A DNA stretch of 64,000 nucleotides, taken from the sequence record PV467749.1; one strand, written 5' to 3'. The notes below the pieces were generated by a model. It was not told the DNA's origin. It made no database searches and saw only the letters and a program-made list of their open reading frames with translations. Position numbers and translations under genes: made by a program. The DNA is from a phage. Within the stretch, counting starts at the first letter, position 1, and each line of letters starts with the position of its first letter. Positions 11,207-54,522 of the stretch are shown piece after piece.

Positions 11207-11699
11207 GAATATCTTTTAAACTAGGAATCTCATCCATAATCTCATCGATATCAGTTTCAATAGTAAAACCTGATTTATAATTTTGTAAGAGATAACTAAA
11301 AGCAACAATGTAAAGAATTTCATTTGGTTTATGGATTAACATGTGTTGGAACATAACTGATTCTAAATCAGATTCAGTACTAAGGTCAGCATAACATGTA
11401 TCGTTTATGTCAATTCGTACTTTACTTGAATTTGGATTCCATGTAAAGCAATGTGTTCCAACTGTTCCCAAACATCCTACTCTTGTACTATCATTTGTTC
11501 CCAAAAAGATATCAAAATACGTTTCATCTGTATAATCGTATTTTTGTACTTTACCTTTTTTAAGGCATAAATCATTATCCTTTCGAAAAGTTTTAGATGA
11601 TAGTGTATCAATGATGCACATTAATGTTTTTGCAAATGCAATACAATGACGTAATTCAAGTCTATGGAAATTATAATTAGTAAAATTCAAAAAATTCAT
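11133..11699 (-). CDS. family A (FQ-motif) paralog
   Basis: 188 aa; motif SVMFQHML; start probably a downstream ATG. Confidence 0.5.
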   Translation of the reverse strand: MNFLNFTNYNFHRLELRHCIAFAKTLMCIIDTLSSKTFRKDNDLCLKKGKVQKYDYTDETYFDIFLGTNDSTRVGCLGTVGTHCFTWNPNSSKVRIDINDTCYADLSTESDLESVMFQHMLIHKPNEILYIVAFSYLLQNYKSGFTIETDIDEIMDEIPSLKDILEEKDFYQDFRDLYNMHRELSDNE

Positions 11700-38438: not shown

Positions 38439-38560
38439 TACTTTTTTATTAATAGTTTTCACCCCACCAGCAGATAGTTACTCACCGTTATTAACTATAT
38501 ATTTTGGATACACCTATGCACCCTGTGGGCTAGTTTTTGTCTATGCGTATATAATAGCAA

Positions 38561-38584
38561 AGGGACTGACCGGAGTCAATCCCT
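38561..38584. terminator. bidirectional terminator inside repeated intergenic cassette
   Basis: Hairpin AGGGACTGAC-cgga-GTCAATCCCT with T7 on plus and U-rich tail on minus; 3' of gene 38602-38802. Confidence 0.5.
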
Positions 38585-38601
38585 TTTTTTATTCTTTTTT
38601 G

Positions 38602-41130: not shown

Positions 41131-41317
41131 CGTCTTGATTCCTTTTAGTACTAGGGAGAACCATTTCCCCCTCTCGATATAAAACATTATACGCTCATTG
41201 AGATAGTTTGCAAGTACTTTTTTAAAAATAGTTTTCAGTACTGAATACTTATATAATAGATACACTTCCGCACCCTATGGGTCAGTGAGTTATCTCTCAA
41301 TGGATATATAATAGCAA

Positions 41318-41341
41318 AGGGACTGACCGGAGTCAATCCCT
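41318..41341. terminator. bidirectional terminator inside repeated intergenic cassette
   Basis: Same hairpin as 38561-38584, followed by T6; 3' of kinase-like gene. Confidence 0.5.
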
Positions 41342-41354
41342 TTTTTAATCTTTT

Positions 41355-44447: not shown

Positions 44448-44582
44448 GTAAAACATTATACTTGATTCTAAGTACAATGCAAGTACTTTTTAAAAATAGT
44501 TTTCAGTACTAGCCACCAGTAAACAATAGATACATTTATGCACCCGGTGGGCTGATTTGTTTCTATGCGTATATAATAGCAA

Positions 44583-44606
44583 AGGGACTGACCGGAGTCA
44601 ATCCCT
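44583..44606. terminator. bidirectional terminator inside repeated intergenic cassette
   Basis: Same hairpin as 38561-38584, T5 follows. Confidence 0.5.
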
Positions 44607-44619
44607 TTTTCAATTATTT

Positions 44620-46011: not shown

Positions 46012-46269
46012 TTATCTCATAGATCTATGCCAACAATTACGCGGATCTCTTTTAAAAGTACTATCATGATCCTCCTGGCAAGTAATACAATACATGCACC
46101 CTATAACGGCCTGGCGTCGATTCTCAGGGATTTTATCGCCGCAGTCGAGGCAATGTACTAGTGATTCTCTTTGTGCGTTAATTTGCTTTCTAGCGTGGTT
46201 AACGGCGGCCTGAATCACTGCGTTAATCTCGTCTTGCTCGGCCCCATCTTTCGCGAATCCTACTGCCAT
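46012..46269 (-). CDS. TraR/DksA-family C4 zinc-finger protein
   Basis: 85 aa; CLDCGDKIPENRRQAVIGCMYCITCQE matches C-x2-CG-x2-IP-x2-RR and C-x2-CQ. Confidence 0.6.
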   Translation of the reverse strand: MAVGFAKDGAEQDEINAVIQAAVNHARKQINAQRESLVHCLDCGDKIPENRRQAVIGCMYCITCQEDHDSTFKRDPRNCWHRSMR

Positions 46270-46430
46270 TATTTTAACCTCATTATAAAAATACTATAGT
46301 ACTGTAATGCTACAATAATACTACTAGTGTTTATCTTATTCAAACCATATGATACTACATATCCACCAGCATTACCACGGATAGTAACGCCTTTGTACTG
46401 TCTATATAAATTCAACTGCGTATATTGCCT

Positions 46431-46503
46431 TTGATCAAGAATTGATCAGAATTATACTCCTTATGCTAAATTGATCCAGTACTTTTTTGATCATTTATTG
46501 ATC
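46431..46503. repeat. GATC / TGATCA cluster
   Basis: Five GATC sites within 73 bp inside a 290-bp non-coding leader. Confidence 0.5.
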
Positions 46504-46605
46504 GATATTATATAGTTACATTTGTGCACCCTATGGGTTAGTGACGTTCTCGTCTTGATGTAAGTATTATGCCAGTACTGGCATTGTATGTCAACAATTA
46601 TTTTC

Positions 46606-46643
46606 AAAAAAAGAAAAAGCCCACCAGCGTTAACCAGTGGGCT
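46606..46643 (-). terminator. intrinsic terminator
   Basis: Hairpin AGCCCAC..GTGGGCT 46618-46643 with long U-rich tail on minus RNA. Confidence 0.45.
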
Positions 46644-46649
46644 ATAATC

Positions 46650-46793
46650 TTACATCTTGCGGATAATCTTAACAGTATCTTTCACCGATTTACCGTTTTG
46701 CTGACATTGCTCGATCATTGCGTATTGTTCTGCGGTCAGATCCTCGCCAGTTTTTGCCAGTACTGCATCGATGAATGAATCCAGTGCGATCAT
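46650..46793 (-). CDS. hypothetical small protein (below ORF-track cutoff)
   Basis: 47 aa ORF read by hand (MIALDSFIDAVLAKTGEDL...), terminator immediately 3'. Confidence 0.4.
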   Translation of the reverse strand: MIALDSFIDAVLAKTGEDLTAEQYAMIEQCQQNGKSVKDTVKIIRKM

Positions 46794-46884
46794 TTTGTTT
46801 CTCTCTTATGTTAAGTTAACTACTGTTTATAAAACTTATTATACAGTACTATCAAACTATGTCAATAGTACTGGTAATATATTT

Positions 46885-47097
46885 TTAGTTAATGATAGTC
46901 AGTGTAAAATTGTAATCACCTGCCTGGTATAGTACTTTGTCGCCGAACGTTCCAACACGTTTCATATTGCAATAGATACCCATAACACTTTTTACATCTT
47001 TGATATTCCGAACGCCAGTAATATCCTTGTTTAAATGATCGTGATCAGAAAATAAAACTTGTTTTGCATTTTTCAGTACAGTGCAGATATTAGCCAT
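46885..47097 (-). CDS. hypothetical small protein
   Basis: 70 aa; PeSL cassette upstream. Confidence 0.5.
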   Translation of the reverse strand: MANICTVLKNAKQVLFSDHDHLNKDITGVRNIKDVKSVMGIYCNMKRVGTFGDKVLYQAGDYNFTLTIIN

Positions 47098-48085: not shown

Positions 48086-48300
48086 AATTCATTTCCTTAA
48101 TTAGTGGGGGAAACCGTTTCCCCTTTCGATGTAAAACATTATACGCCTATTGAGATAGTTTGCAAGTACTTTTTAAAAATAGTTTTCAGTACTCAATACT
48201 TATATAATAGATACACTTCCGCACCCTGTGGGCTAGTGAGCTATCTCTCAATGAATATATAATAGCAAAATGGCTGACCGAAGTCAACCACTTTTTTCAT

Positions 48301-54345: not shown

Positions 54346-54522
54346 ATACCCCATGACAACAGCTAACCCACCGGGTGCACAATTGTAACTATACTAAACT
54401 AATTTTTCTATAGATACACTCCCGCACCCTATGGGCTACGGCTTATCTGCCAATGAATACATTATGCCAGTACTGACAAAATAAGTCAATACCGGCAATT
54501 GTAAATTTTTCAAAAAATATGA

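Follow-up and report, generated by a model that had tools for sequence, protein, structure and literature searches.

The question raised by this locus is why five GATC sites lie within 71 bp of non-coding DNA, upstream of a TraR/DksA-like gene, in a phage lineage whose genome is otherwise depleted of this tetranucleotide. The locus is part of a 64,000-nt stretch of phage DNA (sequence record PV467749.1), which we call the window. The 2 kb around it were 91-97.5% identical to the Asteriusvirus Escherichia jumbo phages fEgEco12 (the closest relative), 121Q, PBECO4 and vB_Ec-M-J, and by this identity the window is Asteriusvirus (121Q/PBECO4-like) DNA. For whole-genome statistics on GATC, the complete genome of fEgEco12 (353.7 kb of unique sequence) was used. 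Our preferred answer, to which we give a probability of about 0.4, is that the sites form a methylation-readable operator array on a predicted internal promoter, P2, in an early-gene cassette.

The sites are at positions 46433, 46444, 46473, 46489 and 46500 (sites 1 to 5; cluster 46433..46503), with gaps of 11, 29, 16 and 11 bp between neighbors. The first-pass annotation of the window had claimed five sites in 73 bp, and five were confirmed, in 71 bp. The window has 147 GATC sites in total (one per 435 bp; 198 expected from shuffles), and the cluster is its unique maximum and the sole place with at least four of them per 75 bp. Five or more sites per 75 bp were obtained in 0.3% of uniform placements and in 0.9% of Markov-1 simulations of the window. 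In fEgEco12, the cluster was the only place with at least four sites per 75-100 bp (P ~0.004). GATC was the second most depleted 4-base palindrome of that genome, with 599 copies observed against ~1,160-1,270 expected (ratio 0.47-0.52; the Markov expectation of 1270 gives 0.47). The local density, which the annotation had proposed to compare with the genome average, was far above it: ~70 per kb in the cluster against 1.7 per kb across the phage. No genome-wide excess of close GATC pairs was found in fEgEco12 (33 adjacent gaps of 35 bp or less, 34.5 expected). All five sites read TTGATC on the plus strand (GATCAA on the transcribed strand), and they account for 5 of the 14 plus-strand TTGATC copies in the 64 kb. 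This flank on a given strand is found at ~10% of GATC sites genome-wide, and five in one orientation would occur by chance with a probability of ~2e-5. The cluster is real and unique, and it is not a chance event. Given the genome-wide depletion of GATC, five sites are unlikely to have been kept in 71 non-coding bp without selection. Counting from the left end of fEgEco12, the first ClaI site (position 11242) overlaps site 5 (ATCGATC); ClaI cleavage is blocked where Dam methylation overlaps its site.

The downstream gene (minus strand, 46012..46269) encodes an 85-aa C4 zinc-finger protein of the TraR/DksA family (Pfam PF01258; 36.8 bits against a cut-off of 24.9, E 3.9e-9). It also matched phrog_54, and its matches to NCBIfam NF008243 and TIGR02419 were below cut-off. 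The GATC sites inside the 3′ end of this gene vary with the amino acid and look incidental, and we rejected them as part of the array. The stretch upstream of the gene had been described as 290 bp free of open reading frames (ORFs). This is not the case: a 48-codon ORF (ORF48; minus strand, 46269..46415, 147 nt), with a TTG start (GTG in the PBECO4 type), is annotated in relatives as 121Q gp293 and fEgEco12 g029 and matches the small family phrog_38664. Its stop codon overlaps the ATG of the TraR/DksA-like gene (TAATG), and its ribosome-binding site is weak. ORF48 evolves as a coding sequence. Two alleles, those of the 121Q and PBECO4 types, differ at ~35% of bases (38 of 108 in the first 36 codons) with frame and length kept; dN/dS between them was 0.42 in this frame, which is free of stop codons, and the other two sense frames contained 5-6 stops and gave values of at least 2. 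ORF48 is thus a probable gene, and the true non-coding leader downstream of the upstream promoter P1 measures ~145 nt. The term non-coding leader is right for these ~145 nt and wrong for the other 147 nt. A search for wider homologs of ORF48 gave one cluster only. The idea that its product is the cassette's own DNA-binding regulator was rejected: it has no Pfam family and only a sub-threshold IscR match, and a single-sequence AlphaFold model showed one helix at low confidence (pLDDT 69.5). A host or plasmid source of the leader was rejected, as blastn gave no match to it among 5,426 E. coli genomes and 72,556 plasmids.

P1 (minus strand, 46566..46594; TTGACA-17-CATAAT with an extended -10 TG) had 11 of 12 matches in the promoter scan and a predicted start at ~46559. 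Its spacer holds the dyad ATGCCAGTACTGGCAT (46569-46584), also given as CCAGTACTGG. The P1 hexamers were invariant across 8 relatives, and differences were confined to the upstream half of the spacer. The first-pass annotation had placed a promoter with a dyad box at about 46530. The promoter is actually at 46594-46566; the dyad in question, ACCCATAGGGT (46538-46528), is transcribed, lies ~20 nt past the predicted P1 start (~20-30 nt over its length) and is part of a conserved motif described below.

The GATC sites, which had been assigned to a plain leader, overlie a second promoter-like element. This element, read from the sequence, is TGGATC-16-TATAAT (minus strand, 46451..46478), with the -35 hexamer at 46478-46473, the -10 hexamer at 46456-46451 and AAAAAAGTA directly upstream of the -35. 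Its parts (AAAAAAGTAC, TGGATC, 16 nt and TATAAT) match the geometry of gene-proximal promoters in paralogous modules, AAAAAGTAC-TTGCAA-16-TATAAT (AGTAC-TTGCAA-16-TATAAT). Because of this shared geometry we named the element P2, and we infer that it is a second, internal sigma70-type promoter under the GATC sites. Its -10 was invariant in 10 of 10 sequences, and its -35 is TTGATC in the PBECO4 type. Relative to the predicted P2 start (~46443-46446), the GATC sites are at ~-58, -47, -31 (in the -35 hexamer), -2 and +10. With at least two GATC sites in or next to its core, the predicted P2 has an arrangement expected of promoters regulated by Dam and SeqA.

Four of the five sites belong to a 27-nt direct repeat of the pattern TATAAT-NN-NGATCAA-N4-TGATCAAA. 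Its two units are 78% identical, with starts 56 bp apart. Unit A (minus strand, 46486..46512; TATAAT-AT-CGATCAA-TAAA-TGATCAAA) carries sites 5 and 4, and unit B (minus strand, 46430..46456; TATAAT-TC-TGATCAA-TTCT-TGATCAAA), found in the 121Q-type haplotype only, carries sites 2 and 1. Within each unit the two GATCs are one helical turn apart and, with their A/T spacer, form a 15-bp GATC-N7-GATC palindrome: GATCATTTATTGATC (46489-46503) in unit A and GATCAAGAATTGATC (46433-46447), across the predicted P2 start, in unit B. The remaining site 3 is between the units, in TGGATC (46478-46473). The cluster is also spanned by an imperfect 26-nt inverted repeat (46433-46458 / 46478-46503). Recent tandem duplication was considered as a source of the repeat and rejected. 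Tandem Repeats Finder gave only two 2-copy arrays, and the likeness of the copies is limited mainly to the TTGATC hexamers and the ATTATA block, which argues against a recent event.

We compared the locus among ten homologous sequences; a search of IMG/VR for further leader variants gave only 121Q itself. Three haplotypes were found. The window belongs to the 121Q type, with five GATC sites. In the PBECO4 type there are four (-59, -48, -43 and -32), all of them upstream of the -10. The third, represented by two metagenome contigs, is recombinant within the P2 spacer and keeps three (-59, -48 and -32). Because every haplotype has the three upstream sites, these form an invariant core. In the PBECO4 type, AAAAAAG is replaced by TGATCAA, which creates a second GATC-N7-GATC unit elsewhere, and two flanks are changed to TTGATC. 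From the P1 -10 to the P2 -10, the window and 121Q were 99.2% identical (1 difference in 121 nt), compared with 88-94% in the flanking genes, and this suggests that the leader is either constrained or recently exchanged.

The whole unit behaves as a cassette. P1, the conserved motif, the GATC/P2 region and ORF48 form an indel (minus strand, 46270..46600; 332 bp in fEgEco12) that is bounded in relatives by the direct repeat TTAAAATAA, 9-10 nt long and located at gene ends. The phages phAPEC6 and ph0011 have none of these parts, and in them the preceding 65-aa gene is joined straight to the traR-like gene. The GATC part of the leader had no other match in these cassette-less genomes. As these phages are viable without the cluster, an essential genome-level role is strongly disfavored. 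In a separate difference of gene content, the window and vB_Ec-M-J lack the 65-aa gene and the window also lacks a 59-aa gene (46793-46885 region), both of which are present in fEgEco12.

These comparisons bear on the view that GATC as such has no function here and that the sites are relics of duplication or reshuffling of promoter modules, kept in a leader that is constrained for other reasons (the P1 transcript or the motif element). TTGATC resembles a -35 hexamer and TATAAT is a -10; four sites are in a 27-nt repeat beginning with TATAAT; TTGATC-16/18-TATACT/TATAGT on the plus strand scores as promoter-like; the region is a hotspot of cassette exchange; and conservation is uniform across the leader. 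However, dozens of similar promoter modules have left only this one cluster in 354 kb, and the genome is depleted of GATC. Moreover, the PBECO4 type independently gained a new GATCAA and improved two flanks to TTGATC, and it did not keep the promoter-like matches of the plus strand. On balance we regard the relic view as unlikely.

A second locus with a similar arrangement was found in fEgEco12. The only other TTGATC pair at 11-bp spacing, GATCAAAAATTGATC (82085-82099 of fEgEco12), occupies an intergenic position ahead of g210, with a terminator on one side and a conserved TAAATA box on the other. Both GATC cores of this pair are kept in PBECO4 and 121Q at ~80% identity; flanks and spacer change, and the spacer stays A/T. 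Over six GATC-N7-GATC units, 41 of 42 spacer bases were A/T.

Which protein might read such units? A GATC pair one helical turn apart is the preferred target of SeqA. The regions bound by SeqA in E. coli favor GATC gaps near 10 or 20 bp and below 50 bp (PMC2912659), and the gaps in the cluster (given above) fit this pattern. Both 15-mers also fit the degenerate Fis consensus GNNYRNNWNNYRNNC exactly. Against the consensus GNTYAAAWTTTRANC (PMC6907758), unit A scored 10/13 (by hand) and unit B 11/13, and the GATC-N7-GATC units overall scored 10-12/13. Because Fis-like scores are common by chance, we take this match as a lead and not as a finding. GATC sites inside Fis sites of E. coli are hypomethylated (PMC10653831). 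The first-pass suggestion of a Dam- or SeqA-directed cluster is therefore plausible in that the cluster is unique, has SeqA-like gaps and overlies promoter elements, but its flanks and spacers fit a dimeric, sequence-specific protein such as Fis at least equally well.

The same features would be expected of an operator that is independent of methylation. In that case the TTGATCA heptamer, or the 15-bp GATCA-N5-TGATC, would be bound by a dimeric protein (Fis, another nucleoid protein or a phage early or middle regulator), and GATC would merely be part of its recognition sequence. The same TT flank at 8 of 9 sites across the haplotypes, the nearly pure A/T spacers and the exact fit to the degenerate Fis consensus are consistent with this, and the 27-nt direct repeat at 56-bp spacing suggests two equivalent binding modules. 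At the g210 pair, however, it is the flanks that vary (TTGATCA, TCGATCA, ATGATCT) and the GATC cores that stay. The genome has no excess of Fis-like scores, the 48-aa product of the cassette showed no DNA-binding fold, and one further paired site in 354 kb is few for a regulon. Such an operator is possible, though we would not bet on it.

We return to the methylation-readable array on P2. ORF48 and the TraR/DksA-like gene would be transcribed either from the strong P1, with a leader of ~145 nt, or from P2. The GATC sites would cover the UP-element zone upstream of the P2 -35 (-58 and -47) and the -35 hexamer (-31) and, in the haplotype of the window, also the transcription start (-2) and the first transcribed bases (+10). 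Host readers of GATC pairs would bind there: SeqA on hemimethylated or methylated DNA, or Fis, modulated by methylation, with Dam competing. Binding would tune P2, and possibly also transcription reading through from P1, to the methylation state of the phage DNA and hence to its replication state. In this way, ORF48 and the TraR-like gene would be expressed in step with the methylation and replication of the terminal repeat in which the locus lies, both on its entry into the cell and while it is copied. Methylation could come from the host, which has Dam, or from the phage, or from both: the product of fEgEco12 g162 is a predicted Dam-family methyltransferase (PF05869, E 6e-33), and a C5-cytosine methyltransferase is also encoded. 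In the same genome, g271 is annotated as a 'SAM (S-adenosylmethionine) hydrolase'. It had no Pfam match and matched only a PHROG of unknown function, and we did not rely on this label, which, if right, would bear on Dam methylation during infection.

The sequence establishes the anatomy of the locus, its uniqueness, its conservation and its character as a cassette; the firing of P2, the methylation of the sites and the identity of the reading protein are inferred. Several observations favor the array. The cluster is unique in a GATC-depleted genome and its sites are on promoter elements, and P2 is homologous by position to gene-proximal promoters in the paralogous modules. All haplotypes keep the three upstream sites, and the PBECO4 type has gained another GATC-N7-GATC unit. 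Identity of the leader to 121Q exceeds that of the flanking genes, the copies are alike mainly in TTGATC and ATTATA, and the GATC cores of the g210 pair are conserved. The SeqA-like spacings, the hypomethylated state of GATCs in Fis sites and the Dam-family enzyme of the phage point the same way.

Several results weigh on the other side. The P2 -35 has only 3 of 6 matches in the haplotype of the window, and P2 was under the threshold of the scan tool. Two of the five GATC sites are haplotype-specific. Conservation spans the whole leader, beyond the GATC cores alone, and at 14% divergence the survival of the 12 shared GATC core bases would have a chance probability of ~0.16. Fis scores of at least 11 in this AT-rich genome numbered 23 against 36 expected. 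No recognizable sites for OxyR, Lrp, Fur, IHF or DnaA were found beside the GATC sites.

A more specific form of the methylation-readable array is that the two palindromes act as a methylation-gated switch. The switch would read the replication and methylation state of the terminal repeat together with the growth state of the host (through Fis or SeqA), and would time the TraR-like protein and its 48-aa partner. Proteins of the TraR-like family bind the secondary channel of RNA polymerase. We consider this version quite unlikely. If true, a strictly lytic phage whose genome is otherwise purged of GATC would possess an epigenetic timer.

The sites might instead act in RNA. Hairpins formed by the self-complementary UGAUCA repeats of the P1 transcript would govern how well the ORF48/traR-like mRNA is translated or how stable it is, and they would be absent from P2 transcripts. 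In the minimum-free-energy fold (-29 kcal/mol), sites 1 and 5 are paired, as are sites 2 and 4, and the hairpin UGAUCAAUUCUUGAUCA adjoins AAAGG upstream of the ORF48 start. The z-score of this fold was a modest -2.0, and folding of the cluster with DNA parameters gave -2.5. Neither the PBECO4 type nor the recombinant haplotype has sites 1 and 2, so the long-range fold can form in only one haplotype of three and is not conserved, which weakens the RNA reading. No Rfam 15 family matched in the window at gathering or permissive thresholds, and the best sub-threshold matches were on the terminator of the upstream gene. An RNA element is, in our judgment, improbable.

The position of the locus in the genome bears on another alternative, a role in a DNA transaction at the genome level, either as a replication origin or sequestration site (as in oriC or P1 oriR) or as a packaging site (as in P1 pac). 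In vB_Ec-M-J, the homologous region is annotated within a 21.5-kb direct terminal repeat. In fEgEco12, the homologous sites are at 11,245-11,312 of a 20,993-bp terminal repeat, the ends of which were predicted with PhageTerm and verified by restriction digestion (PMC13070987). Repeated TGATCA/G hexamers in two groups with gaps of ~11-12 bp recall P1 pac, and the region is AT-rich with tandem promoters. P1 pac, however, has 4 + 3 hexamers with spacings of 7, 12, 15 and 12, 11 that flank a ~96-bp cleavage zone with an IHF site. It is located at the start of packaging and is served by PacA and PacB, whereas the cluster sits ~11.2 kb into the repeat, well away from its mapped ends, and is dispensable in relatives. 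We rejected a P1-type pac for its position and for the lack of an IHF consensus, the hexamers notwithstanding. A replication origin was rejected as well. A DnaA box (at most one mismatch) was absent from the cluster and the leader, the one-mismatch matches at 46336-46344 and 46658-46666 lying outside. GC skew tracked gene orientation only and gave no origin signal. Further points against a genome-level role are that the terminase carries a T4-like annotation, that phAPEC6 and ph0011 are viable although they have no copy of the cassette, and that other phages matched only the P1/motif part. A genome-level role of either kind is very improbable.

Among known systems, the cluster comes closest to Dam-sensitive promoters in phages and transposons and to GATC clusters bound by SeqA. 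Dam-controlled promoters with GATC in or near the core include those of phage Mu mom, the transposases of IS10 and Tn5, P1 cre and dnaA P2. As in these cases, several GATC sites here are within ~60 bp of a predicted sigma70-type promoter, one of them in the -35 hexamer, and the setting is a phage or mobile element with Dam supplied by the host or the element. Unlike in them, no OxyR, Lrp or Fur partner is recognizable, and there are five sites, arranged with two palindromic 15-mers. Dam control of transposase promoters is summarized in PMC3347997. Compared with clusters bound by SeqA (oriC, the dnaA promoter and phage lambda promoters, where SeqA regulation is noted in PMC2912659), the gaps of 11-29 bp are within the range favored in vivo, but there are only five sites and no origin features. 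Compared with Fis sites that contain GATC, the 15-bp palindromes have the same G and C ends, YR/YR steps and A/T center. They differ in having 10-11/13 matches, which are common by chance, and in their centers at ~-52 and +4 of P2, which is not the classical activating position of -71. Weinreich and Reznikoff (1992) are said to have reported a Dam-sensitive Fis site at the inside end of IS50.

A different kind of likeness is to the PeSL cassettes of T4-type phages (PMC2839356, PMC4122927), small early genes with their own promoter or a composite terminator-promoter that are gained and lost at conserved regulatory sequences. This likeness concerns the movement of the cassette and not the role of GATC, and the indel here is bounded by the 9-10-nt repeat noted above.

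Gene timing in Rak2/121Q-like jumbo phages is almost unstudied. In the Asteriusvirus and Rak2-like phage literature that was text-searched, there was no mention of GATC or of this leader, and only the CBB paper describes promoters. A conserved GATC array, kept against genome-wide avoidance, offers a clean and cheap handle on whether a lytic phage uses Dam and SeqA, or Fis, in timing an early regulator of RNA polymerase. If methylation had no effect, the locus would still be a compact operator for a DNA-binding protein and an example of early-gene cassette exchange.

Genes around the locus are short and on the minus strand, and nearly each has its own near-consensus sigma70 promoter, a layout that looks like an early, host-takeover region. 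The gene upstream of P1 (minus strand, 46650-46793) encodes 47 aa, and its intrinsic terminator (minus strand, 46618..46643; an 11-bp stem AGCCCACTGG..CTGGTGGGCT followed by a T run) precedes P1. The terminal-repeat part of the window (~36000-58000) had a G+C content of 0.37-0.40, compared with 0.31-0.35 outside. In the terminal repeat of fEgEco12, GATC per kb was 2.7-fold above the rest of the genome.

Palindrome bias in fEgEco12 was most extreme for GCGC, followed by GATC (0.47) and CCGG (0.63). GCGC was absent from the 64-kb window and from the 353.7 kb of unique fEgEco12 sequence, where ~185 copies were expected; the top-ranked jumbo-phage and Asteriusvirus literature had no mention of GCGC or HhaI. 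In contrast to these depleted sequences, GTAC was 1.35-fold over-represented in fEgEco12. AGTACT or CCAGTACTGG occurs in or beside nearly every early promoter (for example, at 46476-46483 and 46572-46579), in varying positions: upstream of the -35, at the junction of -35 and spacer, or immediately ahead of the -10. It is a possible operator for a regulator of early genes.

The conserved motif that contains the former dyad box, A-CCCATAGGGTGCACAAATGTAACTATA (27 nt; minus strand, 46511..46538), is one of 9 copies of CCCAYMGGGTGCNNANNTGTAWC in the window. There are 8 copies in fEgEco12, and in both sequences the motif is confined to the terminal repeat. The copies in the window are at 38529, 41281, 44551, 46537, 48232, 54435 and 56324 on the minus strand and at 54367 and 56256 on the plus strand, and two pairs close to the left end of the repeat converge. 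An upstream -10 was 20-28 nt before the motif in all 8 copies with an identifiable -10. The unit of promoter plus motif is also present in the phages G17, RaK2 and Muenster and in Erwinia phage Hallingskeid, where it runs antisense into the terminator of the upstream gene and resembles a small RNA gene of ~100 nt. Covariation in the motif family was not above controls, and the family had no Rfam match. The 3′ half of the motif can fold into a G.U-rich hairpin, GGGUGCN-NNNN-UGUAUCU, the GGG of which is shared with a CCC-NNN-GGG hairpin. At 56319-56300 (minus strand), a T run comes after the G.U-rich hairpin, which there scores as a terminator. The alternative hairpins could form an attenuator-like structure. 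Finally, a composite terminator-promoter recurs on the minus strand at 38559-38586, 41316-41343, 44581-44608 and 48267-48294. Its stem AAAGGGATTGACTCCGGTCAGTCCCTTT includes the -35 hexamer TTGACT and is followed by TGCTATTAT, an arrangement that resembles the T4-type PeSL elements (PMC2839356).

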